Source of the DNA: Dudresnaya verticillata
Lineage: Eukaryota
Direction of reading: 5' to 3'
NCBI GenBank assembly: GCA_977862235.1
Contig: OZ374565.1
Coordinates: forward strand, 2,480,001-2,544,000
DNA: 64,000 nt
The position numbers were made by a program, and so were the translations under genes. Of the stretch, positions 2,225 to 44,293 are shown piece by piece. How positions within the stretch are numbered: the stretch's first letter is position 1; every line of letters begins with the position of its first letter. The notes beneath the pieces were generated by a model, which was not told where the DNA came from, did not search any database, and worked only from the letters and a program-made list of their open reading frames with translations.

Positions 2225-2340
2225 TCAGTCTGAGGTGAGTTCAACTTTATAACAGGTGACCATATTCTAATATTTGTCGACGTACAATCTACTGTAGTAT
2301 CACAACAAAGTTAAACCCCAACTCAAAACAACCTGCACAT

Positions 2341-5300
2341 CTACACCTCCTGTTGGATCCCTTCCATCAGGCACTTGACGTTGTTCTGCACCAGTCGCGC
2401 CGCGTGCCTGTGGAACAGAGCCGCTCGCGAAACACCGCGAGTTACCATGGCCCGAGAAGCCACGGTATCCGCCAACTCTTGCATATACTTGTGCGCCTCC
2501 GGGTGCCAGCCACCTAGTGTGGTCATCGGCACCGGCACAAGCCTTGCCCCCGGTCCGGCAGCCTGGATGAAGCCACGGTAAGTCCGCACCTTGTCAGCGT
2601 GGGCGTTCTTCAGCGTCCCTTGCGGGTTTGTTATGCAGCTGAGAATGCGTTGTTCTGACGACAGTGGATGACTGATTGTGACGTCCAGGTAGTCCGTTCC
2701 TCCTTCTGTTCCAAGCGCCTTGATGTCCGGCCGATCCAAGTGAGCCCCCACAGGGCGGGGCTCCACAATCGGGGTGCGTGTCGCACGTTTCAGATCCGAA
2801 GCCAGCAGACGAACCTGAGAGTCGTGGCGCCACGACCGAGGAGATCCGCTGTTCCGCATGCCGTTCGGACAAATCAGCAGATGGTCGCCGTGAACATCCA
2901 TCATCTTCTTGCACCCGGCCCGAGGACACTCCGTGTCGGGTTCCAGCAGTGGAATCCGACAGTAGAATCGAAGCCATACGCGGTAGTCCCGATCCGCAAT
3001 GTACGTCTTCATGCCTGGTGCCGGCTGGCACTTGAGCCAGTCCTTGGCGCCCGGCACGCCAAGGGAAGCTCGGAAAGCTTGCGTCCGCCTGTCCCCGAGC
3101 GGCAGCTCGGCTTGCACTTTCTTCAGAACCAACCGCGTCAAGTCCCGCTGGCGCGGGCACTCGTCGCTGTCGATCTTCTCCAGGTCCAGGGCATCCTCAC
3201 TATGGCACTTGGCGCTCCAGTCTTCGTGCGCTTCTACTGCAAAAGGATCGTCAGAAAGAGCAGTGTTCACAGAAGCGGGTAAGATAGAACGCAGTAAGTT
3301 GCGGGTCAGTGAAAGGGACGCCAAAAACGCGCTCGAGTTCATGTCGCCAGCTCCCGAAATACCGATTCCGAAGCTGGGCTCTTTCGTGCGCAGGGGAAGC
3401 TGAAGTTCGCGGAAGGTGTCCCTCGGTAGGACTCCTCCCACGAGCTTGCGCATGCAAGCCTCAATCTTCTGGTCGAAGAGCTCGGCGCCCTTTGCCGTGG
3501 CGGATGATGGAACTACTCGCAGCAGGTAGTTCAGCCGGCAGACTCCGGCACAGTTGCGGAGTAGAGTGATGGCCACGTGTAGGTCTTCTAGTCCCGAAAT
3601 TGCGTCCAGCAGGGGCTGGATGGACTCGACATGGCCATTCACGCTCTCCTCCATGTAGTTCTGCGTTCCAATCGGAGCCTGAAGTACTGTAGTGCCTTCT
3701 CCGTAGCTCTGCCCAAGATCCGACGGGTAGGCAGCGCAGTCTTCTGGGTCGGGTGCAGTAGGCCACCAAACAGTACACTTGTCCATGCGCAGGTGGAAGC
3801 CATAGCCCTTAGCTTCCTCGGAGTCAAAGAAGGACAGAACCTTCCTGAGTACGGCGTGTTTCGCCACGATGACGCCGTCGTCCAGGTAGAACAGTGACAG
3901 CAGCAAGTTGTTCGCCCCCTCCGCTTGCTGATTGCGGCCCGAGCGCCGCAGGTCGGCGGTGAGTTCCTTCAACTGTTTGATCAGTGCCTGCAGCACCAAA
4001 GCAAACAGTAACGGCCCGAGCGGGTCACCTTGCTGTACACCAGTGACACTCCGCAGTAGAGTGTCACCCATCCACAGGTGCGGGCCCTCAGAGTCATAAC
4101 AGTATCTGACCCACGGTAGTAGTTCAGGCATATGTCGGCGGACCTCCTTCATGAATGCTTTGCGGCTGACAAGGTTGAAGGCATTCTTCAAGTCCACTTG
4201 TAGCAACCCGTAGGACTTGTCATGGCCGTGAGACTTCTGCAGCTTCCGGACCGCGTGTACAATGGCTTCTGTGCCGCCCGAGGTTGCGACCCCGAGCTGA
4301 AGCGGTTCGAGGTATGCCTTGGCCTTGGGAGCGACTCTGGTCATGAGCATAGAGCTCACGAGTCGTCGGATTGTCTCTCCTACAGCAATGGGGCGGACAC
4401 CGCCGGTGCGCTTCTTCAGAGCCGTGAGAGGAGCGCTGGCAATCCAAGGCGACAGCTCCGCAGGTCCTGCGCCGCTGGCCAGCACGTTGACCATTTTGGT
4501 GAGCCCGCCAAGCAGGCCCGTGTGCTCGTGAGTGGTCGGGACTGAGAGCAGTTCCTGCAGATGGGTCGGTGATAGTCCTGTTCCCCCCGAGGCCGAAGCC
4601 CGGGGGAACTTGGCCACTGCTTTTCGTACTTCGTCGGCTGTGAAAGGCACGAAGTCAGGCATGGTCGGCAGCGGTTCGGACTGGTCAAGCTCGTGGTCCG
4701 CGTCGGTTTGCAGTACGGACTGCGGGTGCTTGTCCTTCATGGACTGTATCACAGAGTCTGTGGCTGGGGCGATTCCATCAGAGTCTAGAGCTGCTGCTGC
4801 CTTACTGTAGGCGCCCTCCTTTGCAAGGCGAAGGGCTCGTGAGGCATTGATACGGCGTTGCTCTTCTGCGGAAGGCGCAGTCTGCTCACGGAATGTCGAG
4901 CCCTTCAAGGCCTCCTGCCATAGGGCGTCGTAATCCTTGAGTCCCCAGCGTCGGATTCGATCGCGGAAGGTGCCGATCGAGGACGCAGAGGTTGACGCGC
5001 TGGCCCTTGCACTCGCGGCGGGAGGATTGGACAAGACGGCTGCTGGAAAAAGCAGGAATGCAGTGAGCTCTTTGGTGGCTTCCTGAGAGTTGGTTGCGTT
5101 CGTAAAAGCCCATACCGTCTTGGACAGTGCGTCGCGCACCTCGGCGCGGACGCGAGACGGTATATGTGTGACCATAGGGATATGCGAGCGACAGATGTCT
5201 TCGACCGCCGGCAGAAGCTGCCCTCCTGGACCCCGCGCAACGGGTGGGGTTTGCGCAGTTGGTACCTCTCGAGTAGCAGGTACCGGTGCAGGAGGCGGCT

Positions 5301-5829
5301 CCTGGCTGTCCGGGATTCGTCGCGGGGCTGGCAGGATATCGTCCGCTGGCTCGCCGTCCTCGGGTTGCGTCTCCGTGACCGCGTCCAGAGCAGGAGACTG
5401 TGATGGCGCGGCTACAGTTTCTTCACGGCTCGGTGTCGTCAATTGGTTGGACGGGACGTGGGAGAACGCCGGAGTGCGAGTAGCGGGACATGCGCTGCAA
5501 TTCTTGTACCGCATACTGTACATGCCTTCACTGTTCATGCGGGAGCTACAGTGGGTGGGCATGTACTTGTTGTGAGTCACACAGTACCATACTCCATAGT
5601 CCAGGAGCTGCTGCTTGAGAGGCTCGATGTCGGTCCTCGTCGGTGGTCCTCGCCTGCCAGGAACATGCATCTTCCGCAGGTGCATGAGTAGCGCTTCTAC
5701 AGTAGGCAGTGAGGACGACTGGCAGCCCAGAGGACAGCTGGTACTGTTTGTCGGGCGGTGTTTTGCCGAAGGCATAAAGCATGGAGAGAGCCATACCTTC
5801 GGCATGTCGGGGTGCTGCTGACCAATCAT
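2341..5829 (-). CDS. 1162-aa polyprotein: CCHH zinc finger, reverse transcriptase, CCHC knuckle, restriction-like endonuclease (CRE-clade-like)
   Basis: C32-x3-C-x13-H-x4-H; RT motifs GGVRPIAVGE, QLGV, VDLKNAFN, GVQQGDPLGPLLF, YLDDG; C-x4-C-x9-H-x3-C followed by RHD, RPD, DVT and a downstream K. Confidence 0.95.
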   Translation of the reverse strand: MIGQQHPDMPKVWLSPCFMPSAKHRPTNSTSCPLGCQSSSLPTVEALLMHLRKMHVPGRRGPPTRTDIEPLKQQLLDYGVWYCVTHNKYMPTHCSSRMNSEGMYSMRYKNCSACPATRTPAFSHVPSNQLTTPSREETVAAPSQSPALDAVTETQPEDGEPADDILPAPRRIPDSQEPPPAPVPATREVPTAQTPPVARGPGGQLLPAVEDICRSHIPMVTHIPSRVRAEVRDALSKTVWAFTNATNSQEATKELTAFLLFPAAVLSNPPAASARASASTSASSIGTFRDRIRRWGLKDYDALWQEALKGSTFREQTAPSAEEQRRINASRALRLAKEGAYSKAAAALDSDGIAPATDSVIQSMKDKHPQSVLQTDADHELDQSEPLPTMPDFVPFTADEVRKAVAKFPRASASGGTGLSPTHLQELLSVPTTHEHTGLLGGLTKMVNVLASGAGPAELSPWIASAPLTALKKRTGGVRPIAVGETIRRLVSSMLMTRVAPKAKAYLEPLQLGVATSGGTEAIVHAVRKLQKSHGHDKSYGLLQVDLKNAFNLVSRKAFMKEVRRHMPELLPWVRYCYDSEGPHLWMGDTLLRSVTGVQQGDPLGPLLFALVLQALIKQLKELTADLRRSGRNQQAEGANNLLLSLFYLDDGVIVAKHAVLRKVLSFFDSEEAKGYGFHLRMDKCTVWWPTAPDPEDCAAYPSDLGQSYGEGTTVLQAPIGTQNYMEESVNGHVESIQPLLDAISGLEDLHVAITLLRNCAGVCRLNYLLRVVPSSATAKGAELFDQKIEACMRKLVGGVLPRDTFRELQLPLRTKEPSFGIGISGAGDMNSSAFLASLSLTRNLLRSILPASVNTALSDDPFAVEAHEDWSAKCHSEDALDLEKIDSDECPRQRDLTRLVLKKVQAELPLGDRRTQAFRASLGVPGAKDWLKCQPAPGMKTYIADRDYRVWLRFYCRIPLLEPDTECPRAGCKKMMDVHGDHLLICPNGMRNSGSPRSWRHDSQVRLLASDLKRATRTPIVEPRPVGAHLDRPDIKALGTEGGTDYLDVTISHPLSSEQRILSCITNPQGTLKNAHADKVRTYRGFIQAAGPGARLVPVPMTTLGGWHPEAHKYMQELADTVASRAMVTRGVSRAALFHRHAARLVQNNVKCLMEGIQQEV

Positions 5830-6569
5830 GGTTACAGCGCTGGGTAAGGTACCTGTAAAGGTCCTCTACAGTAGGTTCCCACGGGGCACAGGCCTCCTAA
5901 CCGGGACGCAAGCCTGTCGTCCGTCGTCAGTCTGTTCGGGACACCTCCAGAGGGTGCTACAGGTGGCCTTGCTGCGAGATGAGGGCCTCTTCGCAGCGTA
6001 GGGCGCGAGATCGCGCACTTTGCGCACGAGCTCGCGCAAAAGGGCGCGCGTGTTAGCGTTCGTGCGCGCAGAGTTATCGGACGTTCCCTTCCCTGCCGCA
6101 GCTGAGAAGACTCTCTTCACTGCGGTCCTGTAACGCGCGGTACTTCTCGTTTGCACAAGCTCTCAATGGGGTCGCAGAACCACCGTTTACCTGTGAGTGC
6201 CCACAGGATTTTTGGCCTCCCCCGAAGGTTCGCTGGCAGGACGTTCGCTCGATCTTAGAAGGGGTGGTTTCAAAACAGGATCCACCAGGCTTAAGCCACG
6301 TTACCCCAACTTCGACGTTGCTTGGCACGTTTCTGCGATGAGCTTGTGGGTCACGAGCCGCCTACCACTCAAGGTCGAGGGTCTTTGGCGATTCCCACAC
6401 TTGTAGGTCTCTCGGCACTTCCCGAAGGAAGATTTTACAGGACAAGCCTGGCCTTTACCAATCTGTCAGTTGAAGGGTGTGAAACCCCTCTGTCGACAGT
6501 CCACGGCAGCCTAGACAGAGTCTAGGCTGTGCCGGGTACAAGCAAAACGCGTACAGGGCCAGGGAAAGA

Positions 6570-6615
6570 AAGATAAGTCAGTGGGGCCCGGGCAAATTTC
6601 AAGGTGAGGGATCAC
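6570..6615 (+). promoter_or_regulatory. 5S internal-control-region/target mimic in the element's 5' region (also 1915-1960, 12445-12490, 17129-17174, 21813-21858, 26469-26514, 31128-31173, 35793-35838, 43984-44029, 53436-53481, 58096-58141)
   Basis: AAGATAAGTC-N22-AGGTGAGGGATCAC, with the same blocks and spacing as 5S +51..+60 and +83..+96. Function is inferred. Confidence 0.6.
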
Positions 6616-6652
6616 CTTAAAAGTAAGCGCAAAATAGGAAACGCGTGACCGT

Positions 6653-6693
6653 CGGCGACGACGGCGGCGGCGACGGCGGCGACGACGACGGCG
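6653..6693 (+). repeat. Mixed (GGC/GAC)n trinucleotide tract in the element's 5' region (in every copy with an intact 5' end)
   Basis: CGGCGACGACGGCGGCGGCGACGGCGGCGACGACGACGGCG. Confidence 0.8.
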
Positions 6694-6905
6694 TCGCGGC
6701 GCAGATCGGCGGCGCGGAAAGAGACAAAAGTAGACCGCGCTCGCCCGCCCGCGAAGGTGAAGGGCTGAAAAACCCCGCACCGACGCGCCGTCGCGCGCTC
6801 GAACAGGCGGCACCGCCGCCGAAAAGATCGGTGCAGAACTTGTTGAGATATCCGCGAAACAAAAATTTCGGCAGATCGCTGAGGGAGTACTCAGTCTGAG
6901 GTGAG

Positions 6906-6936
6906 GGATCACTCTGGAATCGCCAGTGCCGAATGT
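6906..6936 (+). rRNA. 5S rRNA: 5S rRNA gene, 3' fragment (+90..+120), interrupted
   Basis: GGATCACTCTGGAATCGCCAGTGCCGAATGT; terminal GCCGAATGT pairs perfectly with 5' ACATTCGGC (helix I); followed by T-runs. Confidence 0.93.
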
Positions 6937-6948
6937 TTTTATTTTTTT
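6936..6948 (+). terminator. RNA polymerase III terminator of 5S (T5-A-T7); also 38477-38489 and 61822-61834
   Basis: TTTTTATTTTTTT immediately after the helix I 3' strand. Confidence 0.85.
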
Positions 6949-8025
6949 GCACCTCATTCCTTCCTCCCCGCCGCCCTCTGCGTACATTGCTGCCTTGCAT
7001 ACCTCTCCCACAGAATCCCCGACCCACTGCCTCTGTACAGCGTATTCTTTTCACTCGCACTTTTCCCCTTTTCTTGTAAGTGGGAGGGAGTCTGAGAGTG
7101 TTTGCAGGTGTCTAGGGGTTGTTTAGGGTTAGGTCTAGGGTTAGTTTGGTTACTGTGGTACGCGAGGGGCATGATATTGGGAGGGTAAAGGGTCTAGTGT
7201 TGGTGCATGGAATGAATCATGGTGGTGGAAGGAATGGATCAGTGTGGTGGATGAATTGGATTTAGGGACATAGAATTGGATTAGATTTAGTACCCAGAAG
7301 ATTGGATCAAGGATCACCACAATCGGATCAAGTCTGGTGGCTGGGGTGAGGGTGGCTTGGACGTTTGTGCTCATAACTTTGGAACGGCTGGGGCTAGGGA
7401 GCTGCTCAGTAGCTGAATCGAAGCGTCTCGTTGCTGCGCATTGCGTAGCGCTCTTACCCTCCTAAATCGACTTTTTGGCGCGTTTCTATGGTGCAAAACG
7501 TCCCCACGGGCCGTCGGCAGCTTTTGAGCAGATCAAATAGGGGTTTGGGGCATGTATGGTTATGGGTGGGTTTAGGGGTGTTAGGGATGTGTCATTTTAA
7601 CGCGTTTAGGAGTGTAGGGAGTGGGAATGAAAGTAGTAAGGATGAGGAAATGGAAAGGGAAGGATGAGAAAGTATAGTACAATGCAGTAATACAAATCAC
7701 GGAATGCATCAGGTTGGGATCCAATAAGGGTGGATGGATTGGATCAACGGAAGTCAAGGCGTTATAGGATTGGATCTAGGGGCTCTGTAAATTAGATTGG
7801 GTGCTGGTTTCATTGAACCAAGGGGTCAGAACGTCCATGAGCTGGTTGACTGTATTTATATTGAATCCTGCGTTTAGAGTAAATGGTATACGGTTATGGG
7901 TCATTACTTTAATGCTCCACGTGTACACTACAGTCGGATGGACATTGGACGCAGGAGTCTTTAGTCGATGACGGGGAGTGCAGTTGATGGCGCATTTAAA
8001 TAGGGGTACGGCGGGAACAGCAAGC
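6937..8025 (+). repeat. 5S rDNA intergenic spacer (1089 bp)
   Basis: Lies between a 5S 3' end and the next 5S 5' end; recurs apparently unchanged four times. Confidence 0.9.
7994..8001 (+). promoter_or_regulatory. TATA-like element at -32..-25 of 5S (also 39535-39542, 48987-48994, 62880-62887)
   Basis: ATTTAAAT in a GC-richer context, at the usual upstream position for 5S genes. Confidence 0.6.
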
Positions 8026-8114
8026 ACATTCGGCCATACTACGCAGACATGCTCCGTATCCCATCCCGAACTGCGAAGATAAGTCTCGTCAGGCTGGTTT
8101 AGTACTGAGGTGAG
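8026..8114 (+). rRNA. 5S rRNA: 5S rRNA gene, 5' fragment (+1..+89), interrupted; its 3' part lies at 38447-38477
   Basis: ACATTCGGCCATAC...ATCCCATCCCGAACTGCGAAGATAAG...TTAGTACTGAGGTGAG; conserved 5S motifs GGCCATAC, CCCATC-CGAAC, TAGTACT; 89+31 = 120 nt. Confidence 0.93.
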
Positions 8115-11100
8115 TTCAACTTTATAACAGGTGACCATATTCTAATATTTGTCGACGTACAATCTACTGTAGTATCACAACAAAGTTAAACCCCAACTCA
8201 AAACAACCTGCACATCTACACCTCCTGTTGGATCCCTTCCATCAGGCACTTGACGTTGTTCTGCACCAGTCGCGCCGCGTGCCTGTGGAACAGAGCCGCT
8301 CGCGAAACACCGCGAGTTACCATGGCCCGAGAAGCCACGGTATCCGCCAACTCTTGCATATACTTGTGCGCCTCCGGGTGCCAGCCACCTAGTGTGGTCA
8401 TCGGCACCGGCACAAGCCTTGCCCCCGGTCCGGCAGCCTGGATGAAGCCACGATAAGTCCGCACCTTGTCAGCGTGGGCGTTCTTCAGCGTCCCTTGCGG
8501 GTTTGTTATGCAGCTGAGAATGCGTTGTTCTGACGACAGTGGATGACTGATTGTGACGTCCAGGTAGTCCGTTCCTCCTTCTGTTCCAAGCGCCTTGATG
8601 TCCGGCCGATCCAAGTGAGCCCCCACAGGGCGGGGCTCCACAATCGGGGTGCGTGTCGCACGTTTCAGATCCGAAGCCAGCAGACGAACCTGAGAGTCGT
8701 GGCGCCACGACCGAGGAGATCCGCTGTTCCGCATGCCGTTCGGACAAATCAGCAGATGGTCGCCGTGAACATCCATCATCTTCTTGCACCCGGCCCGAGG
8801 ACACTCCGTGTCGGGTTCCAGCAGTGGAATCCGACAGTAGAATCGAAGCCATACGCGGTAGTCCCGATCCGCAATGTACGTCTTCATGCCTGGTGCCGGC
8901 TGGCACTTGAGCCAGTCCTTGGCGCCCGGCACGCCAAGGGAAGCTCGGAAAGCTTGCGTCCGCCTGTCCCCGAGCGGCAGCTCGGCTTGCACTTTCTTCA
9001 GAACCAACCGCGTCAAGTCCCGCTGGCGCGGGCACTCGTCGCTGTCGATCTTCTCCAGGTCCAGGGCATCCTCACTATGGCACTTGGCGCTCCAGTCTTC
9101 GTGCGCTTCTACTGCAAAAGGATCGTCAGAAAGAGCAGTGTTCACAGAAGCGGGTAAGATAGAACGCAGTAAGTTGCGGGTCAGTGAAAGGGACGCCAAA
9201 AACGCGCTCGAGTTCATGTCGCCAGCTCCCGAAATACCGATTCCGAAGCTGGGCTCTTTCGTGCGCAGGGGAAGCTGAAGTTCGCGGAAGGTGTCCCTCG
9301 GTAGGACTCCTCCCACGAGCTTGCGCATGCAAGCCTCAATCTTCTGGTCGAAGAGCTCGGCGCCCTTTGCCGTGGCGGATGATGGAACTACTCGCAGCAG
9401 GTAGTTCAGCCGGCAGACTCCGGCACAGTTGCGGAGTAGAGTGATGGCCACGTGTAGGTCTTCTAGTCCCGAAATTGCGTCCAGCAGGGGCTGGATGGAC
9501 TCGACATGGCCATTCACGCTCTCCTCCATGTAGTTCTGCGTTCCAATCGGAGCCTGAAGTACTGTAGTGCCTTCTCCGTAGCTCTGCCCAAGATCCGACG
9601 GGTAGGCAGCGCAGTCTTCTGGGTCGGGTGCAGTAGGCCACCAAACAGTACACTTGTCCATGCGCAGGTGGAAGCCATAGCCCTTAGCTTCCTCGGAGTC
9701 AAAGAAGGACAGAACCTTCCTGAGTACGGCGTGTTTCGCCACGATGACGCCGTCGTCCAGGTAGAACAGTGACAGCAGCAAGTTGTTCGCCCCCTCCGCT
9801 TGCTGATTGCGGCCCGAGCGCCGCAGGTCGGCGGTGAGTTCCTTCAACTGTTTGATCAGTGCCTGCAGCACCAAAGCAAACAGTAACGGCCCGAGCGGGT
9901 CACCTTGCTGTACACCAGTGACACTCCGCAGTAGAGTGTCACCCATCCACAGGTGCGGGCCCTCAGAGTCATAACAGTATCTGACCCACGGTAGTAGTTC
10001 AGGCATATGTCGGCGGACCTCCTTCATGAATGCTTTGCGGCTGACAAGGTTGAAGGCATTCTTCAAGTCCACTTGTAGCAACCCGTAGGACTTGTCATGG
10101 CCGTGAGACTTCTGCAGCTTCCGGACCGCGTGTACAATGGCTTCTGTGCCGCCCGAGGTTGCGACCCCGAGCTGAAGCGGTTCGAGGTATGCCTTGGCCT
10201 TGGGAGCGACTCTGGTCATGAGCATAGAGCTCACGAGTCGTCGGATTGTCTCTCCTACAGCAATGGGGCGGACACCGCCGGTGCGCTTCTTCAGAGCCGT
10301 GAGAGGAGCGCTGGCAATCCAAGGCGACAGCTCCGCAGGTCCTGCGCCGCTGGCCAGCACGTTGACCATTTTGGTGAGCCCGCCAAGCAGGCCCGTGTGC
10401 TCGTGAGTGGTCGGGACTGAGAGCAGTTCCTGCAGATGCGTCGGTGATAGTCCTGTTCCCCCCGAGGCCGAAGCCCGGGGGAACTTGGCCACTGCTTTTC
10501 GTACTTCGTCGGCTGTGAAAGGCACGAAGTCAGGCATGGTCGGCAGCGGTTCGGACTGGTCAAGCTCGTGGTCCGCGTCGGTTTGCGGTACGGACTGCGG
10601 GTGCTTGTCCTTCATGGACTGTATCACAGAGTCTGTGGCTGGGGCGATTCCATCAGAGTCTAGAGCTGCTGCTGCCTTACTGTAGGCGCCCTCCTTTGCA
10701 AGGCGAAGGGCTCGTGAGGCATTGATACGGCGTTGCTCTTCTGCGGAAGGCGCAGTCTGCTCACGGAATGTCGAGCCCTTCAAGGCCTCCTGCCATAGGG
10801 CGTCGTAATCCTTGAGTCCCCAGCGTCGGATTCGATCGCGGAAGGTGCCGATCGAGGACGCAGAGGTTGACGCGCTGGCCCTTGCACTCGCGGCGGGAGG
10901 ATTGGACAAGACGGCTGCTGGAAAAAGCAGGAATGCAGTGAGCTCTTTGGTGGCTTCCTGAGAGTTGGTTGCGTTCGTAAAAGCCCATACCGTCTTGGAC
11001 AGTGCGTCGCGCACCTCGGCGCGGACGCGAGACGGTATATGTGTGACCATAGGGATATGCGAGCGACAGATGTCTTCGACCGCCGGCAGAAGCTGCCCTC

Positions 11101-12754
11101 CTGGACCCCGCGCAACGGGTGGGGTTTGCGCAGTTGGTACCTCTCGAGTAGCAGGTACCGGTGCAGGAGGCGGCTCCTGGCTGTCCGGGATTCGTCGCGG
11201 GGCTGGCAGGATATCGTCCGCTGGCTCGCCGTCCTCGGGTTGCGTCTCCGTGACCGCGTCCAGAGCAGGAGACTGTGATGGCGCGGCTACAGTTTCTTCA
11301 CGGCTCGGTGTCGTCAATTGGTTGGACGGGACGTGGGAGAACGCCGGAGTGCGAGTAGCGGGACATGCGCTGCAATTCTTGTACCGCATACTGTACATGC
11401 CTTCACTGTTCATGCGGGAGCTACAGTGGGTGGGCATGTACTTGTTGTGAGTCACACAGTACCATACTCCATAGTCCAGGAGCTGCTGCTTGAGAGGCTC
11501 GATGTCGGTCCTCGTCGGTGGTCCTCGCCTGCCAGGAACATGCATCTTCCGCAGGTGCATGAGTAGCGCTTCTACAGTAGGCAGTGAGGACGACTGGCAG
11601 CCCAGAGGACAGCTGGTACTGTTTGTCGGGCGGTGTTTTGCCGAAGGCATAAAGCATGGAGAGAGCCATACCTTCGGCATGTCGGGGTGCTGCTGACCAA
11701 TCATGGTTACAGCGCTGGGTAAGGTACCTGTAAAGGTCCTCTACAGTAGGTTCCCACGGGGCACAGACCTCCTAACCGGGACGCAAGCCTGTCGTCCGTC
11801 GTCAGTCTGTTCGGGACACCTCCAGAGGGTGCTACAGGTGGCCTTGCTGCGAGATGAGGGCCTCTTCGCAGCGTAGGGCGCGAGATCGCGCACTTTGCGC
11901 ACGAGCTCGCGCAAAAGGGCGCGCGTGTTAGCGTTCGTGCGCGCAGAGTTATCGGACGTTCCCTTCCCTGCCGCAGCTGAGAAGACTCTCTTCACTGCGG
12001 TCCTGTAACGCGCGGTACTTCTCGTTTGCACAAGCTCTCAATGGGGTCGCAGAACCACCGTTTACCTGTGAGTGCCCACAGGATTTTTGGCCTCCCCCGA
12101 AGGTTCGCTGGCAGGACGTTCGCTCGATCTTAGAAGGGGTGGTTTCAAAACAGGATCCACCAGGCTTAAGCCACGTTACCCCAACTTCGACGTTGCTTGG
12201 CACGTTTCTGCGATGAGCTTGTGGGTCACGAGCCGCCTACCACTCAAGGTCGAGGGTCTTTGGCGATTCCCACACTTGTAGGTCTCTCGGCACTTCCCGA
12301 AGGAAGATTTTACAGGACAAGCCTGGCCTTTACCAATCTGTCAGTTGAAGGGTGTGAAACCCCTCTGTCGACAGTCCACGGCAGCCTAGACAGAGTCTAG
12401 GCTGTGCCGGGTACAAGCAAAACGCGTACAGGGCCAGGGAAAGAAAGATAAGTCAGTGGGGCCCGGGCAAATTTCAAGGTGAGGGATCACCTTAAAAGTA
12501 AGCGCAAAATAGGAAACGCGTGACCGTCGGCGACGACGGCGGCGGCGACGGCGGCGACGACGACGGCGTCGCGGCGCAGATCGGCGGCGCGGAAAGAGAC
12601 AAAAGTAGACCGCGCTCGCCCGCCCGCGAAGGTGAAGGGCTGAAAAACCCCGCACCGACGCGCCGTCGCGCGCTCGAACAGGCGGCACCGCCGCCGAAAA
12701 GATCGGTGCAGAACTTGCTGAGAAATCTCCGAAACAAAAAATTCGGCAGATCGC
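8115..12754 (-). mobile_element. Full-length retrotransposon, copy 2
   Basis: 3' end joined directly to 5S +89; intact ORF. Confidence 0.95.
8216..11704 (-). CDS. 1162-aa RT/RLE polyprotein
   Basis: ORF track; same motifs as copy 1. Confidence 0.95.
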   Translation of the reverse strand: MIGQQHPDMPKVWLSPCFMPSAKHRPTNSTSCPLGCQSSSLPTVEALLMHLRKMHVPGRRGPPTRTDIEPLKQQLLDYGVWYCVTHNKYMPTHCSSRMNSEGMYSMRYKNCSACPATRTPAFSHVPSNQLTTPSREETVAAPSQSPALDAVTETQPEDGEPADDILPAPRRIPDSQEPPPAPVPATREVPTAQTPPVARGPGGQLLPAVEDICRSHIPMVTHIPSRVRAEVRDALSKTVWAFTNATNSQEATKELTAFLLFPAAVLSNPPAASARASASTSASSIGTFRDRIRRWGLKDYDALWQEALKGSTFREQTAPSAEEQRRINASRALRLAKEGAYSKAAAALDSDGIAPATDSVIQSMKDKHPQSVPQTDADHELDQSEPLPTMPDFVPFTADEVRKAVAKFPRASASGGTGLSPTHLQELLSVPTTHEHTGLLGGLTKMVNVLASGAGPAELSPWIASAPLTALKKRTGGVRPIAVGETIRRLVSSMLMTRVAPKAKAYLEPLQLGVATSGGTEAIVHAVRKLQKSHGHDKSYGLLQVDLKNAFNLVSRKAFMKEVRRHMPELLPWVRYCYDSEGPHLWMGDTLLRSVTGVQQGDPLGPLLFALVLQALIKQLKELTADLRRSGRNQQAEGANNLLLSLFYLDDGVIVAKHAVLRKVLSFFDSEEAKGYGFHLRMDKCTVWWPTAPDPEDCAAYPSDLGQSYGEGTTVLQAPIGTQNYMEESVNGHVESIQPLLDAISGLEDLHVAITLLRNCAGVCRLNYLLRVVPSSATAKGAELFDQKIEACMRKLVGGVLPRDTFRELQLPLRTKEPSFGIGISGAGDMNSSAFLASLSLTRNLLRSILPASVNTALSDDPFAVEAHEDWSAKCHSEDALDLEKIDSDECPRQRDLTRLVLKKVQAELPLGDRRTQAFRASLGVPGAKDWLKCQPAPGMKTYIADRDYRVWLRFYCRIPLLEPDTECPRAGCKKMMDVHGDHLLICPNGMRNSGSPRSWRHDSQVRLLASDLKRATRTPIVEPRPVGAHLDRPDIKALGTEGGTDYLDVTISHPLSSEQRILSCITNPQGTLKNAHADKVRTYRGFIQAAGPGARLVPVPMTTLGGWHPEAHKYMQELADTVASRAMVTRGVSRAALFHRHAARLVQNNVKCLMEGIQQEV

Positions 12755-12798
12755 GAGGGGTTCTCCGGGTACTGAGGTGAGGACTGAGGTCAGGTGAG

Positions 12799-22138: not shown

Positions 22139-25100
22139 TTCAACTTTATAACAGGTGACCATATTCTAATATTTGTCGACGTACAATCTACTGTAGTATC
22201 ACAACAAAGTTAAACCCCAACTCAAAACAACCTGCACATCTACACCTCCTGTTGGATCCCTTCCATCAGGCACTTGACGTTGTTCTGCACCAGTCGCGCC
22301 GCGTGCCTGTGGAACAGAGCCGCTCGCGAAACACCGCGAGTTACCATGGCCCGAGAAGCCACGGTATCCGCCAACTCTTGCATATACTTGTGCGCCTCCG
22401 GGTGCCAGCCACCTAGTGTGGTCATCGGCACCGGCACAAGCCTTGCCCCCGGTCCGGCAGCCTGGATGAAGCCACGGTAAGTCCGCACCTTGTCAGCGTG
22501 GGCGTTCTTCAGCGTCCCTTGCGGGTTTGTTATGCAGCTGAGAATGCGTTGTTCTGACGACAGTGGATGACTGATTGTGACGTCCAGGTAGTCCGTTCCT
22601 CCTTCTGTTCCAAGCGCCTTGATGTCCGGCCGATCCAAGTGAGCCCCCACCGGGCGGGGCTCCACAATCGGGGTGCGTGTCGCACGTTTCAGATCCGAAG
22701 CCAGCAGACGAACCTGAGAGTCGTGGCGCCACGACCGAGGAGATCCGCTGTTCCGCATGCCGTTCGGACAAATCAGCAGATGGTCGCCGTGAACATCCAT
22801 CATCTTCTTGCACCCGGCCCGAGGACACTCCGTGTCGGGTTCCAGCAGTGGAATCCGACAGTAGAATCGAAGCCATACGCGGTAGTCCCGATCCGCAATG
22901 TACGTCTTCATGCCTGGTGCCGGCTGGCACTTGAGCCAGTCCTTGGCGCCCGGCACGCCAAGGGAAGCTCGGAAAGCTTGCGTCCGCCTGTCCCCGAGCG
23001 GCAGCTCGGCTTGCACTTTCTTCAGAACCAACCGCGTCAAGTCCCGCTGGCGCGGGCACTCGTCGCTGTCGATCTTCTCCAGGTCCAGGGCATCCTCACT
23101 ATGGCACTTGGCGCTCCAGTCTTCGTGCGCTTCTACTGCAAAAGGATCGTCAGAAAGAGCAGTGTTCACAGAAGCGGGTAAGATAGAACGCAGTAAGTTG
23201 CGGGTCAGTGAAAGGGACGCCAAAAACGCGCTCGAGTTCATGTCGCCAGCTCCCGAAATACCGATTCCGAAGCTGGGCTCTTTCGTGCGCAGGGGAAGCT
23301 GAAGTTCGCGGAAGGTGTCCCTCGGTAGGACTCCTCCCACGAGCTTGCGCATGCAAGCCTCAATCTTCTGGTCGAAGAGCTCGGCGCCCTTTGCCGTGGC
23401 GGATGATGGAACTACTCGCAGCAGGTAGTTCAGCCGGCAGACTCCGGCACAGTTGCGGAGTAGAGTGATGGCCACGTGTAGGTCTTCTAGTCCCGAAATT
23501 GCGTCCAGCAGGGGCTGGATGGACTCGACATGGCCATTCACGCTCTCCTCCATGTAGTTCTGCGTTCCAATCGGAGCCTGAAGTACTGTAGTGCCTTCTC
23601 CGTAGCTCTGCCCAAGATCCGACGGGTAGGCAGCGCAGTCTTCTGGGTCGGGTGCAGTAGGCCACCAAACAGTACACTTGTCCATGCGCAGGTGGAAGCC
23701 ATAGCCCTTAGCTTCCTCGGAGTCAAAGAAGGACAGAACCTTCCTGAGTACGGCGTGTTTCGCCACGATGACGCCGTCGTCCAGGTAGAACAGTGACAGC
23801 AGCAAGTTGTTCGCCCCCTCCGCTTGCTGATTGCGGCCCGAGCGCCGCAGGTCGGCGGTGAGTTCCTTCAACTGTTTGATCAGTGCCTGCAGCACCAAAG
23901 CAAACAGTAACGGCCCGAGCGGGTCACCTTGCTGTACACCAGTGACACTCCGCAGTAGAGTGTCACCCATCCACAGGTGCGGGCCCTCAGAGTCATAACA
24001 GTATCTGACCCACGGTAGTAGTTCAGGCATATGTCGGCGGACCTCCTTCATGAATGCTTTGCGGCTGACAAGGTTGAAGGCATTCTTCAAGTCCACTTGT
24101 AGCAACCCGTAGGACTTGTCATGGCCGTGAGACTTCTGCAGCTTCCGGACCGCGTGTACAATGGCTTCTGTGCCGCCCGAGGTTGCGACCCCGAGCTGAA
24201 GCGGTTCGAGGTATGCCTTGGCCTTGGGAGCGACTCTGGTCATGAGCATAGAGCTCACGAGTCGTCGGATTGTCTCTCCTACAGCAATGGGGCGGACACC
24301 GCCGGTGCGCTTCTTCAGAGCCGTGAGAGGAGCGCTGGCAATCCAAGGCGACAGCTCCGCAGGTCCTGCGCCGCTGGCCAGCACGTTGACCATTTTGGTG
24401 AGCCCGCCAAGCAGGCCCGTGTGCTCGTGAGTGGTCGGGACTGAGAGCAGTTCCTGCAGATGCGTCGGTGATAGTCCTGTTCCCCCCGAGGCCGAAGCCC
24501 GGGGGAACTTGGCCACTGCTTTTCGTACTTCGTCGGCTGTGAAAGGCACGAAGTCAGGCATGGTCGGCAGCGGTTCGGACTGGTCAAGCTCGTGGTCCGC
24601 GTCGGTTTGCGGTACGGACTGCGGGTGCTTGTCCTTCATGGACTGTATCACAGAGTCTGTGGCTGGGGCGATTCCATCAGAGTCTAGAGCTGCTGCTGCC
24701 TTACTGTAGGCGCCCTCCTTTGCAAGGCGAAGGGCTCGTGAGGCATTGATACGGCGTTGCTCTTCTGCGGAAGGCGCAGTCTGCTCACGGAATGTCGAGC
24801 CCTTCAAGGCCTCCTGCCATAGGGCGTCGTAATCCTTGAGTCCCCAGCGTCGGATTCGATCGCGGAAGGTGCCGATCGAGGACGCAGAGGTTGACGCGCT
24901 GGCCCTTGCACTCGCCGCGGGAGGATTGGACAAGACGGCTGCTGGAAAAAGCAGGAATGCAGTGAGCTCTTTGGTGGCTTCCTGAGAGTTGGTTGCGTTC
25001 GTAAAAGCCCATACCGTCTTGGACAGTGCGTCGCGCACCTCGGCGCGGACGCGAGACGGTATATGTGTGACCATAGGGATATGCGAGCGACAGATGTCTT

Positions 25101-26777: not shown

Positions 26778-26797
26778 GTACTGAGTACTGAGGTGAG

Positions 26798-39655: not shown

Positions 39656-42600
39656 TTCAACTTTATAACAGGTGACCATATTCTAATATTTGTCGACGTA
39701 CAATCTACTGTAGTATCACAACAAAGTTAAACCCCAACTCAAAACAACCTGCACATCTACACCTCCTGTTGGATCCCTTCCATCAGGCACTTGACGTTGT
39801 TCTGCACCAGTCGCGCCGCGTGCCTGTGGAACAGAGCCGCTCGCGAAACACCGCGAGTTACCATGGCCCGAGAAGCCACGGTATCCGCCAACTCTTGCAT
39901 ATACTTGTGCGCCTCCGGGTGCCAGCCACCTAGTGTGGTCATCGGCACCGGCACAAGCCTTGCCCCCGGTCCGGCAGCCTGGATGAAGCCACGATAAGTC
40001 CGCACCTTGTCAGCGTGGGCGTTCTTCAGCGTCCCTTGCGGGTTTGTTATGCAGCTGAGAATGCGTTGTTCTGACGACAGTGGATGACTGATTGTGACGT
40101 CCAGGTAGTCCGTTCCTCCTTCTGTTCCAAGCGCCTTGATGTCCGGCCGATCCAAGTGAGCCCCCACCGGGCGGGGCTCCACAATCGGGGTGCGTGTCGC
40201 ACGTTTCAGATCCGAAGCCAGCAGACGAACCTGAGAGTCGTGGCGCCACGACCGAGGAGATCCGCTGTTCCGCATGCCGTTCGGACAAATCAGCAGATGG
40301 TCGCCGTGAACATCCATCATCTTCTTGCACCCGGCCCGAGGACACTCCGTGTCGGGTTCCAGCAGTGGAATCCGACAGTAGAATCGAAGCCATACGCGGT
40401 AGTCCCGATCCGCAATGTACGTCTTCATGCCTGGTGCCGGCTGGCACTTGAGCCAGTCCTTGGCGCCCGGCACGCCAAGGGAAGCTCGGAAAGCTTGCGT
40501 CCGCCTGTCCCCGAGCGGCAGCTCGGCTTGCACTTTCTTCAGAACCAACCGCGTCAAGTCCCGCTGGCGCGGGCACTCGTCGCTGTCGATCTTCTCCAGG
40601 TCCAGGGCATCCTCACTATGGCACTTGGCGCTCCAGTCTTCGTGCGCTTCTACTGCAAAAGGATCGTCAGAAAGAGCAGTGTTCACAGAAGCGGGTAAGA
40701 TAGAACGCAGTAAGTTGCGGGTCAGTGAAAGGGACGCCAAAAACGCGCTCGAGTTCATGTCGCCAGCTCCCGAAATACCGATTCCGAAGCTGGGCTCTTT
40801 CGTGCGCAGGGGAAGCTGAAGTTCGCGGAAGGTGTCCCTCGGTAGGACTCCTCCCACGAGCTTGCGCATGCAAGCCTCAATCTTCTGGTCGAAGAGCTCG
40901 GCGCCCTTCGCCGTGGCGGATGATGGAACTACTCGCAGCAGGTAGTTCAGCCGGCAGACTCCGGCACAGTTGCGGAGTAGAGTGATGGCCACGTGTAGGT
41001 CTTCTAGTCCCGAAATTGCGTCCAGCAGGGGCTGGATGGACTCGACATGGCCATTCACGCTCTCCTCCATGTAGTTCTGCGTTCCAATCGGAGCCTGAAG
41101 TGCTGTAGTGCCTTCTCCGTAGCTCTGCCCAAGATCCGACGGGTAGGCAGCGCAGTCTTCTGGGTCGGGTGCAGTAGGCCACCAAACAGTACACTTGTCC
41201 ATGCGCAGGTGGAAGCCATAGCCCTTAGCTTCCTCGGAGTCAAAGAAGGACAGAACCTTCCTGAGTACGGCGTGTTTCGCCACGATGACGCCGTCGTCCA
41301 GGTAGAACAGTGACAGCAGCAAGTTGTTCGCCCCCTCCGCTTGCTGATTGCGGCCCGAGCGCCGCAGGTCGGCGGTGAGTTCCTTCAACTGTTTGATCAG
41401 TGCCTGCAGCACCAAAGCAAACAGTAACGGCCCGAGCGGGTCACCTTGCTGTACACCAGTGACACTCCGCAGTAGAGTGTCACCCATCCACAGGTGCGGG
41501 CCCTCAGAGTCATAACAGTATCTGACCCACGGTAGTAGTTCAGGCATATGTCGGCGGACCTCCTTCATGAATGCTTTGCGGCTGACAAGGTTGAAGGCAT
41601 TCTTCAAGTCCACTTGTAGCAACCCGTAGGACTTGTCATGGCCGTGAGACTTCTGCAGCTTCCGGACCGCGTGTACAATGGCTTCTGTGCCGCCCGAGGT
41701 TGCGACCCCGAGCTGAAGCGGTTCGAGGTATGCCTTGGCCTTGGGAGCGACTCTGGTCATGAGCATAGAGCTCACGAGTCGTCGGATTGTCTCTCCTACA
41801 GCAATGGGGCGGACACCGCCGGTGCGCTTCTTCAGAGCCGTGAGAGGAGCGCTGGCAATCCAAGGCGACAGCTCCGCAGGTCCTGCGCCGCTGGCCAGCA
41901 CGTTGACCATTTTGGTGAGCCCGCCAAGCAGGCCCGTGTGCTCGTGAGTGGTCGGGACTGAGAGCAGTTCCTGCAGATGCGTCGGTGATAGTCCTGTGCC
42001 CCCCGAGGCCGAAGCCCGGGGGAACTTGGCCACTGCTTTTCGTACTTCGTCGGCTGTGAAAGGCACAAAGTCAGGCATGGTCGGCAGCGGTTCGGACTGG
42101 TCAAGCTCGTGGTCCGCGTCGGTTTGCGGTACGGACTGTGGGTGCTTGTCCTTCATGGACTGTATCACAGAGTCTGTGGCTGGCGCGATTCCATCAGAGT
42201 CTAGAGCTGCTGCTGCCTTACTGTAGGCGCCCTCCTTTGCGAGGCGAAGGGCTCGTGAGGCGTTGATACGGCGTTGCTCTTCTGCGGAAGGCGCAGTCTG
42301 CTCACGGAATGTCGAGCCCTTCAAGGCCTCCTGCCATAGGGCGTCGTAATCCTTGAGTCCCCAGCGGCGGATTCGATCGCGGAAGGTGCCGATCGAGGAC
42401 GCAGAGGTTGACGCGCCGGCCCTTGCACTCGCCGCGGGAGGATTGGACAAGACGGCTGCTGGAAAAAGCAGGAATGCAGTGAGCTCTTTGGTGGCTTCCT
42501 GAGAGTTGTTTGCGTTCGTAAAAGCCCATACCGTCTTGGACAGTGCGTCGCGCACCTCTGCGCGCACGCGAGACGGTATATGTGTGACCATAGGGATATG

Positions 42601-44293
42601 CGAGCGACAGATATCTTCGACCGCCGGCAGAAGCTGCCCTCCTGGACCCCGCGCAGCGTGTCGGGTTTGCGCAGTTGGTACCACTTGAGTAGCTGGTACC
42701 GGTGCAGGAGGCGGCTCCTGGCTGTCCGGGATTCGTCGCGGGGCTGGCAGGATATCGTCCGCCGGCTCGCCGTCCTCGGGTTGCGTCTCCGTGACCGCGT
42801 CCAGAGCAGGAGTCTGTGATGGCGCGGCTACAGTTTCTTCACGGCTCGGTGTCGTCAATTGGTTGGACGGGACGTGGGAGAACGCCGGAGTGCGAGTGGC
42901 GGGACATGCGCTGCAATTCTTGTACCGCATACTGTACATGCCTTCACTGTTCATGCGGGAGCTACAGTGGGTAGGCATGTACTTGTTGTGAGTCACACAG
43001 TACCATACTCCATAGTCCAGGAGCTGCTGCTTGAGAGGCTCGATGTCGGTCCTCGTCGGTGGTCCTCGCCTGCCAGGAACATGCATCTTCCGCAGGTGCA
43101 TGAGTAGCGCTTCTACAGTAGGCAGTGAGGACGACTGGCAGCCCAGAGGACAGCTGGTACTGTTTGTCGGGCGGTGTTTTGCCGAAGGCATAAAGCATGG
43201 AGAGAGCCATACCTTCGGCATGTCGGGGTGCTGCTGACCAATCATGGTTACAGCGCTGGGTAAGGTACCTGTAAAGGTCCTCTACAGTAGGTTCCCTCGG
43301 GGCACAGACCTCCTAACCGGGACGCAAGCCTGTCGTCCGTCGTCAGTCTGTTCGGGACACCTCCAGAGGGTGCTACAGGTGGCCTTGCTGCGAGATGAAG
43401 GCCTCTTCGCAGCGTAGGGCGTGAGATTGCGCAATTTGCGCACGAGCTCGCGCAAAAGGGCGCACGTGTTAGCGTTCGCGCGTAGACTTATCGGACGTTC
43501 CCTTCCCTGCCGCAGCTGAGAAGAGTCTCTTCACTGCGGTCCTGTAACGCGCGGTACTTCTCGTTTGCACAAGCTCTCAATGGGGTCGCAGAACCACCGT
43601 TTACCTGTGAGTGCCCACAGGATTTTTGGCCTCCCCCGAAGGTTCGCTGGCAGGACGTTCGCTCGATCTTAGAAGGGGTGGTTTCAAAACAGGATCCACC
43701 AGGCTTAAGCCACGTTACCCCAACTTCGACGTTGCTTGGCACGTTTCTGCGATGAGCTTGTGGGTCACGAGCCGCCTACCACTCAAGGTCGAGGGTCTTT
43801 GGCGATTCCCACACTTGTAGGTCTCTCGGCACTTCCCGAAGGAAGATTTTACAGGACAAGCCTGGCCTTTACCAATCTGTCAGTTGAAGGGTGTGAAACC
43901 CCTCTGTCGACAGTCCACGGCAGCCTAGACAGAGTCTAGGCTGTGCCGGGTACAAGCAAAACGCGTACAGGGCCAGGGAAAGAAAGATAAGTCAGTGGGG
44001 CCCGGGCAAATTTCAAGGTGAGGGATCACCTTAAAAGTAAGCGCAAAATAGGAAACGCGTGACCGTCGGCGACGACGGCGGCGGCGACGGCGGCGACGAC
44101 GACGGCGTCGCGGCGCAGATCGACGGCGCAAAAAGAGACAAAAGTAGACCGCGCTCGCCCGCCGTCAAAGGTGAAGGGCTGAAAAACCCCGCACCGACGC
44201 GCCGTCGCGCGCTCGAACAGGCGGCACCGCCGCCGAAAAGATCGGTGCAGAACTTGTTGAGATATCCGCGAAACAAAATTTTCGGCAGATCGC
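39656..44293 (-). mobile_element. Full-length retrotransposon, copy 9 (divergent subtype; 2-bp deletion in 5' region)
   Basis: Diagnostic QVVPTAQTRHA, NANN, TTAL. Confidence 0.95.
39757..43245 (-). CDS. 1162-aa RT/RLE polyprotein (variant)
   Basis: ORF track. Confidence 0.95.
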   Translation of the reverse strand: MIGQQHPDMPKVWLSPCFMPSAKHRPTNSTSCPLGCQSSSLPTVEALLMHLRKMHVPGRRGPPTRTDIEPLKQQLLDYGVWYCVTHNKYMPTHCSSRMNSEGMYSMRYKNCSACPATRTPAFSHVPSNQLTTPSREETVAAPSQTPALDAVTETQPEDGEPADDILPAPRRIPDSQEPPPAPVPATQVVPTAQTRHAARGPGGQLLPAVEDICRSHIPMVTHIPSRVRAEVRDALSKTVWAFTNANNSQEATKELTAFLLFPAAVLSNPPAASARAGASTSASSIGTFRDRIRRWGLKDYDALWQEALKGSTFREQTAPSAEEQRRINASRALRLAKEGAYSKAAAALDSDGIAPATDSVIQSMKDKHPQSVPQTDADHELDQSEPLPTMPDFVPFTADEVRKAVAKFPRASASGGTGLSPTHLQELLSVPTTHEHTGLLGGLTKMVNVLASGAGPAELSPWIASAPLTALKKRTGGVRPIAVGETIRRLVSSMLMTRVAPKAKAYLEPLQLGVATSGGTEAIVHAVRKLQKSHGHDKSYGLLQVDLKNAFNLVSRKAFMKEVRRHMPELLPWVRYCYDSEGPHLWMGDTLLRSVTGVQQGDPLGPLLFALVLQALIKQLKELTADLRRSGRNQQAEGANNLLLSLFYLDDGVIVAKHAVLRKVLSFFDSEEAKGYGFHLRMDKCTVWWPTAPDPEDCAAYPSDLGQSYGEGTTALQAPIGTQNYMEESVNGHVESIQPLLDAISGLEDLHVAITLLRNCAGVCRLNYLLRVVPSSATAKGAELFDQKIEACMRKLVGGVLPRDTFRELQLPLRTKEPSFGIGISGAGDMNSSAFLASLSLTRNLLRSILPASVNTALSDDPFAVEAHEDWSAKCHSEDALDLEKIDSDECPRQRDLTRLVLKKVQAELPLGDRRTQAFRASLGVPGAKDWLKCQPAPGMKTYIADRDYRVWLRFYCRIPLLEPDTECPRAGCKKMMDVHGDHLLICPNGMRNSGSPRSWRHDSQVRLLASDLKRATRTPIVEPRPVGAHLDRPDIKALGTEGGTDYLDVTISHPLSSEQRILSCITNPQGTLKNAHADKVRTYRGFIQAAGPGARLVPVPMTTLGGWHPEAHKYMQELADTVASRAMVTRGVSRAALFHRHAARLVQNNVKCLMEGIQQEV

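Follow-up and report, generated by a model that had tools for sequence, protein, structure and literature searches.

A retrotransposon that inserts into the 5S rRNA genes of Dudresnaya verticillata carries, in its 5′ untranslated region (UTR) and antisense to itself, two blocks of the gene that it targets, set at their native spacing. The motif (6570–6615) lies 263–308 nt inside the 5′ end of the element. Judged from its sequence, it is a genuine, non-random feature that has the form of a retained 5S internal control region. Its descent from 5S is, on these grounds, secure, because both a two-block score and the probability of the in-register 10-mer lie beyond chance. As to its role, we consider the chances to be about even that it represents a captured 5S internal control region that has been kept by selection as a candidate TFIIIA/TFIIIC site.

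The window, by which we mean the whole 64-kb stretch of DNA that was analyzed, contains four 5S rRNA genes (detected with Rfam at 8026, 39567, 49019, and 62912), with a repeat unit of 1209 bp as determined by self-BLAST of the window. All four are cut at +89/+90, each by an antisense retrotransposon, and no uninterrupted 5S gene is present within the 64 kb. The native host 5S sequence used for comparison was rebuilt from two halves (8026–8114 and 6906–6935), and this reconstruction is supported because the 14-mer that spans the insertion point is contiguous, via target duplication, at three 5′ junctions (6899, 38440, and 61785), and because contigs from run X2 extend from the 14-mer segment upstream into 5S-like sequence. 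Two DNA sequencing runs gave just traces, with nothing that crosses the motif. The motif-bearing element and the 5S halves used here are laid out as follows.

7995 to 8002: TATA-like box of the host 5S gene (−31 to −24), from the upstream sequence
8026 to 8114, plus strand: upstream half of a split 5S gene (+1 to +89; RF00001, 54.3 bits)
2240 to 6878, minus strand: full-length non-LTR retrotransposon carrying the motif (4.64 kb; self-BLAST and junction map)
2341 to 5865, minus strand: single open reading frame (ORF) of 1174 aa between stops, in which the first ATG is at 5829 (ORF translation)
6879 to 6905, plus strand: 5′ junction, composed of a filler and a 10-bp target duplication (6896–6905; junction map)
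6906 to 6948, plus strand: remainder of the 5S gene split by this copy, namely its downstream half (+90 to +119) and, from 6936, its T-run terminator

Self-BLAST revealed 16 copies or part-copies of the 4.64-kb element in the window, 98.8–100% identical, arranged in head-to-tail stacks and oriented antisense relative to the 5S gene; as many as seven copies are stacked within one 5S gene. The motif-bearing copy runs from a 5′ end at 6878 to a 3′ end at 2240 that lacks poly(A), and the 1174-aa minus-strand frame is intact in 11 copies. The predicted protein comprises, in order, an N-terminal C2H2-like finger (residues 44–67, shared with its closest protein relatives), a reverse transcriptase (RT) domain (RVT_1, E 1.2e-16), a CCHC knuckle, and a restriction-like endonuclease (RLE), and R2 proteins are its top PDB matches (E 4e-20). 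The closest proteins (P0002–P0004) are 50–58% identical to the element ORF, and a viral scan with P0002 returned no match. A close relative (P0006, 47%) has an additional PF02902 protease domain, as in NeSL and one Utopia element.

We provisionally take the element to be CRE-like, a label that rests on its motifs. As in that clade, there is a single ORF with an RT and a C-terminal RLE catalytic motif, one N-terminal zinc-finger-like motif, and target duplications of variable length (7–14 bp); the poly(A) tail that is general but not strict in the clade is absent here, with all 15 element 3′ ends flush and free of an A-run. The endonuclease motif, counted by hand from the translation, reads RHD-X19-E-X9-RPD-X13-D, a spacing that falls inside the SLACS/CRE endonuclease ranges (PMC12857005). 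The knuckle, C-X4-C-X9-H-X3-C-X13-RHD, is slightly wider than the published CRE-clade pattern of C-X1-3-C-X7-8-H-X3-4-C-X9-10-RHD (PMC12278014; PMC4640811), and a widened regular expression for the CRE knuckle found no match in the element ORF.

Fixed sites in tandem repeats and variable target duplications are shared by the present element and CRE-clade elements, of which SLACS, CRE1/2, CZAR, MoTeR, FoTeR, and Cnl1 likewise have a single ORF with an N-terminal finger, RT, and C-terminal RLE, but the known targets of that clade are spliced-leader genes and telomeres rather than 5S (PMC12278014; PMC12857005). Mutsu of zebrafish is, like the present element, an autonomous non-LTR element that is sequence-specific for 5S genes, but it encodes two ORFs, terminates in poly(A), and enters the gene about 20 nt in from its 5′ end; the excerpted account describes no internal copy of the 5S promoter (PMC5340908). 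The present element thus differs from Mutsu, a member of the Tx1 clade, in having one ORF with an RLE, no poly(A), and an antisense insertion at +89/+90. Mutsu and Rex3 are the non-LTR insertions into 5S genes that appear in the table of a review of rDNA transposons, as excerpted (PMC10946416). The literature that was searched, which excludes Repbase and most subscription journals, yielded neither an RLE-type 5S-specific element nor an autonomous non-LTR element with a copy of the 5S promoter within it; a described family may exist.

The motif itself and the predicted structures around it comprise the following features.

6570 to 6579, plus strand: box A-like block with the same letters as host 5S +51 to +60 (10/10; register from the Rfam alignment)
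6587 to 6593, plus strand: intermediate element (IE)-like spot in the diverged linker (3/3 with the IE consensus in both registers)
6602 to 6615, plus strand: box C-like block with the same letters as host 5S +83 to +96, spanning the element's own insertion point (14/14)
6597 to 6622, minus strand: 11-bp hairpin around box C on the element strand (10 Watson-Crick pairs and one G.U)
6507 to 6529, no strand assigned: 10-bp perfect hairpin, with a right arm that starts at 6520, the equivalent of 5S +1

The initial annotation had described a 10-nt and a 14-nt block identical to 5S, separated by 22 nt in both, with a diverged linker between them, and this description holds: in an ungapped comparison with the host gene the linker (+61 to +82) matches at 6/22 positions, with 9/50 at +1 to +50 and 6/23 at +97 to +119, and these linker and flank matches are at chance level. 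The pattern of two blocks with a 22-nt gap occurs 11 times in the window, ten times exactly and once (1915–1960) with one mismatch within the 10-mer, bearing out the claim that all 11 copies carry it and that one has a single change. None were expected from 100 shuffles, and the 11 copies, being 98.8–100% identical, were counted as one observation.

Could such a resemblance have arisen by chance? By conventional measures the alignment is unremarkable, as the best ungapped score (23) was reached by 13/300 shuffles and the longest single run (14) by 2/300; the total of 30 matches in 46 was reached in 0/300 (maximum 29). The two-block score (the two longest exact runs on one diagonal), a statistic picked after the motif had been noticed, is 24; the 300 shuffles reached no more than 19 by this measure, and the 427,399 bases of 104 related loci no more than 18. 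Even when the 14-mer is granted free as a junction relic, the in-register exact 10-mer has p <=6.6e-5. Moreover, the gene that is matched is the very one that the element targets, and the matches fall at the insertion point and at the promoter boxes; we therefore assign chance next to no probability.

The edges of the blocks follow the promoter boxes of the 5S gene. Using published box A, IE, and box C consensus sequences (PMC3369914), with an assumed relative placing of the three boxes, we found the motif to be identical to the host at 20/21 consensus-specified positions versus 10/27 others (Fisher p 2.5e-5, which is optimistic because positions within a block are not independent). For box C, motif and host agree at 12/12 specified positions and both fit the consensus at 9/12, with the best register in the host gene (+82) found unaided. 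For box A they agree at 6/6 and both fit the published consensus at 4/6; the register used (+52) rests on the Rfam alignment and is not the best-scoring one in the host. The IE match is weak, with a chance probability of 0.33 in either register and 0.06 in both. The native spacing of the boxes is kept without gaps, 22 nt in both motif and host, and at seven positions (by eye) the blocks carry the host letters where the host differs from the Rfam consensus.

Positions that matter to the 5S RNA have meanwhile been lost: the conserved AGUA (+76 to +79) and the 5S 5′ domain are gone, no 5S-like fold was detected at the motif (z −0.71), and RF00001 gave no match there at E values up to 5. Given this lack of both a 5S fold and an Rfam match, we rejected the motif as a 5S rRNA gene or pseudogene with an RNA function. 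When matches were spread at random over +1 to +119 or +51 to +119, two such runs arose in 0/200,000 permutations, and when spread within +51 to +96 they arose in 35/200,000. Uniform decay cannot account for a linker that matches at just 6/22 positions between two blocks without a mismatch.

Boxes that persist while the RNA structure is lost are, by analogy, the pattern known from Cassandra and Ajax, which are miniature retrotransposons with terminal repeats (TRIMs). In Cassandra the boxes and their spacing are kept and the short motifs between them vary (PMC10853983), and in Ajax the promoter region alone is kept, without a 5S fold (PMC10886601). Of the 5S segment, both retain box A, the IE, and box C, much as the present motif retains box A, box C, and a weak IE-like match, and in all three the boxes mirror the host 5S and the sequence between them varies without large indels; Cassandra and Ajax, however, are non-autonomous LTR elements in which the 5S promoter drives their own transcript (PMC10853983; PMC10886601). 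The Cassandra 5S core is about 70 bp (PMC10853983), whereas the present motif consists of two exact antisense blocks, and its carrier, unlike Cassandra and Ajax, is an autonomous non-LTR element that also inserts into box C. Membership of the Cassandra/Ajax group (TRIMp3) was rejected, given the 1174-aa RT frame, the lack of terminal repeats, and the antisense motif. SINE3 elements also carry a 5S-derived Pol III promoter within a retroelement, but are non-autonomous, with a sense 5S head at the 5′ end (PMC10886601; PMC10946416); SINE3 membership was rejected too, as +1 to +50 matches at 9/50 and the motif is internal, reversed, and without a flanking target duplication.

Against this background, we propose that the motif originated from 5S sequence (+51 to +96), either captured as a fragment or left as the fossil of a 5′ junction, that later became buried about 260 nt inside the element 5′ end, and that selection would since have held the protein-contact boxes and their spacing alone while the linker randomized. 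TFIIIA would bind at the motif and recruit TFIIIC, and the bound complex would most likely act at the DNA level on the promoter region of the element itself, serving as a platform, for open chromatin or as a barrier, in place of the box C that each insertion cuts. Within TFIIIA, fingers 1–3 read box C and finger 5 reads the IE, box A being read weakly, and TFIIIC may bind without transcription and act as a barrier (PMC12409998). TFIIIC-only (ETC) sites thus offer a barrier precedent for Pol III factors (PMC12409998), and TRE5-A, whose promoter is boosted by the adjoining tRNA gene, shows that Pol III factors can enhance an adjacent, oppositely oriented retrotransposon promoter (PMC5911963). 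These precedents depend on host genes that lie beyond the element, or on B boxes, whereas here a TFIIIA-type site would lie inside it (PMC12409998; PMC5911963).

The interpretation in the initial annotation is supported in part. Of the roles that it suggested, a captured TFIIIA/Pol III site fits best, in that the block edges fit box A and box C and RNA-structure positions were lost, but the version with a divergent transcript is weaker. Antisense Pol III transcription from about 6520 would be the lesser form of the mechanism. No TATA-like box was found in the 45 nt upstream of the motif, where the host gene has one at −31 to −24, although some 5S genes lack such a box. A T4 stop is first reached 416 nt away in the 2240–6878 copy, 345 nt away in two copies, and 2623–3665 nt away in eight, and with no common stop distance, no defined antisense Pol III product is predicted. 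Nor, as far as the sequence indicates, could the motif transcribe the element, because it is reversed and because the element strand carries T runs, namely a T5 run 12 nt into the 5′ end and seven runs of T4 or longer between 6544 and 6865. A bound, mostly silent TFIIIA/TFIIIC platform would thus fit better than an antisense Pol III gene.

The layout of the motif is, we presume, reminiscent of the L1 antisense promoter. We also note ACGCGT on both sides of the motif (6547 and 6640) and what we take to be an E2F-like 8-mer at 6852–6860, near the element 5′ end; together these raise the possibility of cell-cycle control of the element promoter.

Some observations sit less comfortably with a TFIIIA/TFIIIC site. 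The only variant in 6204–6708 among the 11 copies falls within box A, for which the host itself fits the consensus at only 4/6, and the long box C hairpin is unneeded for DNA binding and favors the element strand. Sequence invariance around the motif, which counts in favor of such a site, is also open to another reading. Two element sub-types (39656–44292 versus 2240–6878) differ at 48 sites, which are clustered, with 4 in 2240–4563, 37 in 4564–6111, 0 in 6112–6708 (which includes the motif), and 7 in 6709–6865; the copies are mosaic. Since 2753–3492 is invariant between the sub-types as well, the invariant 6112–6708 stretch may reflect a recombination mosaic.

The initial annotation had placed the 14-mer in a perfect hairpin, AAGGTGA-GGGA-TCACCTT. 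The hairpin is present, but on the element strand it is longer than was claimed (10 Watson-Crick pairs plus the G.U), whereas the plus strand has a C.A mismatch and 7 contiguous pairs. Pair probabilities are 0.75–1.0, the predicted energies are −11.4 kcal/mol for the element strand versus −8.9 kcal/mol for the other, and the site is one of four hairpins with at least 9 pairs in the element. The 5S gene itself, compared ungapped, has just 4 contiguous pairs at this position. Random UTR flanks extended the 5S core to the length of the box C hairpin in 307/200,000 trials, a figure that is too strong, as two of the extra pairs may have been inherited if the captured 5S lacked the T97 of the host, a base with no counterpart in the Rfam 5S consensus. 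In the predicted antisense RNA, 10/14 bases of the 14-mer have an unpaired probability <=0.17, and box A is mostly unpaired (8/10 bases at 0.77–0.98). The element UTR is hairpin-rich in general (z down to −4.6), and 6440–6539 folds strongly on both strands (z −4.5 plus, −3.5 minus). An Rfam search of 5700–8300 at E values up to 5 found no ribozyme or other family beyond 5S and two weak matches.

Insertion junctions provide a further line of evidence. All 15 element 3′ ends lie flush after the target bases ...GTGAG, without poly(A), and the three intact downstream 5S halves begin GGATCAC, which places the cut at +89/+90 and agrees with the earlier statement that the 14-mer straddles the insertion point. 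The statement that no insertion occurs at any of the motifs is likewise borne out, with 0/15 element 3′ ends within one. Target duplications are 7–14 bp and are accompanied by short fillers at 5′ junctions, and all 18 junctions have at least 7 bases in common with the native upstream sequence, in agreement with the suggestion in the initial annotation that the linker may be required for cleavage. The fillers vary (6879–6905, 12754–12798, 26778–26797, and others) and consist of repeated or folded-back target fragments, and nine of the 14 non-native junctions share 13–14 bases with the native upstream target, or a patch of it. The junctions at 22139 and 58422 resemble the native upstream sequence more than they do the neighboring junction (14 versus 7 and 14 versus 13 bases). 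New copies may thus arrive on the side of a stack that faces the 5S gene, from which +90 to +96 is missing; the hint is a weak one, because junction sequence may travel in RNA or be copied as DNA; two neighboring junctions are identical over 60 bases.

Truncated copies (38436, 61781, 59437, and 47953) end at short homologies. In two, the end lies at an internal 6 bp that match the 5′ end of the full-length element; one has a small duplication, and one copy has a deletion through a 4-bp match, with loss of the 5S 3′ half as well. We also considered whether the element 3′ end (8115–8143, plus strand), which in a forced Rfam alignment fits loosely to the 3′ part of the 5S model, rebuilds the 5S 3′ half; this was rejected, as the chimera is not 5S-like (−21.0 versus −36.0 kcal/mol).

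The main rival to a TFIIIA/TFIIIC site is that the motif mimics the target for the element's own protein, either as a DNA site for the N-terminal fingers, allowing autoregulation as the initial annotation had suggested, or as a hairpin in the 5′ UTR RNA, whose stem would present the duplex just upstream of the nick and act as an integration switch. We regard this as rather unlikely overall, but it has several attractions: the 14-mer spans the nick site, the element strand gives the better stem (11 pairs against 7), which, subject to the correction for T97, is seldom reached with random flanks, the ORF and its closest relatives possess a C2H2-like finger, and in Bombyx mori R2 the folded 5′ RNA binds protein surfaces for target DNA (PMC12503042). 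An RNA stem nevertheless leaves box A, at its exact distance, unexplained; the motif lacks +73 to +82, which is part of most target duplications, and is never cut, and the hint from junctions 22139 and 58422, weak as it is, has new copies landing where +90 to +96 is missing. The two functions could also be combined, such that a host-tracking promoter copy would recruit TFIIIA/TFIIIC backwards to license or tune element transcription within stacks that lack any intact 5S promoter, while box C additionally forms a target-mimic hairpin in the RNA, a reading that we hold tentatively and with some doubt.

Distinctly less probable is that the motif has no present function and is a fossil junction, the relic of a captured 5S fragment, with blocks that have survived by chance or because the structure of the UTR RNA requires them, or that RT template switching onto 5S has refreshed. 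Copying of short target patches and fold-backs at 5′ junctions is indeed evident from the fillers, hairpins abound in the UTR, and one of the 11 copies has a change in box A, all of which would suit a relic. Yet the contrast between the linker and the two perfect blocks contradicts uniform decay, in-register patches of 10 and 14 nt would require prior homology, and neither the 5′ end nor the other end of the element shows any likeness to the present 5S spacer. The initial annotation had further suggested a target-pairing segment; on such a reading, element RNA or cDNA would use the blocks to pair with the 5S target or with 5S rRNA. The element strand is indeed complementary to the 5S sense strand, and antisense box A is predicted to be largely available, but antisense box C is locked in its predicted stem, the motif is 4.3 kb away from the priming 3′ end, and annealing of cDNA predicts truncation at the motif, which is seen in 0/4 truncated or deleted copies; this suggestion is thus disfavored, and we consider it highly improbable.

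The motif was also sought in related loci (n = 104; 80 metagenomic, 1 viral, and 23 from a genome collection). The two-block motif was detected by script in 0/104, but these loci show no sign of 5S insertion and so provide no test among homologs; they are distant (24–49% best-segment protein identity), and among the six closest, more than 350 bases upstream are present only in L002 and L060. No 5S gene was found at the element ends of any of the 104 by script, and Rfam, run on 20 of them, gave no match. The 33 viral matches to box C matched box A at no more than 4/10 positions, and a degenerate two-box pattern search returned 0 matches. A decayed 5S-like segment (L069, 5404–5451; 28/48 matches to the internal control region) lies 1.3 kb downstream of a distant relative and is possibly a SINE3-type insert without relation to the motif.

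Taken at its present strength, a captured 5S internal control region that serves as a candidate TFIIIA/TFIIIC site would extend what is known of such captures. Known cases of 5S-promoter capture concern non-autonomous elements that make their own RNA, whereas here the promoter copy is reversed and resides in an autonomous element. The carrier is notable in itself, as an intact, recently copied RLE-type element specific to 5S genes. Because the insertion site is the same box C, the motif would point to a further way in which a site-specific retrotransposon uses Pol III factors, and it may bear on how elements that are inserted antisense and stacked within their target genes come to be transcribed.
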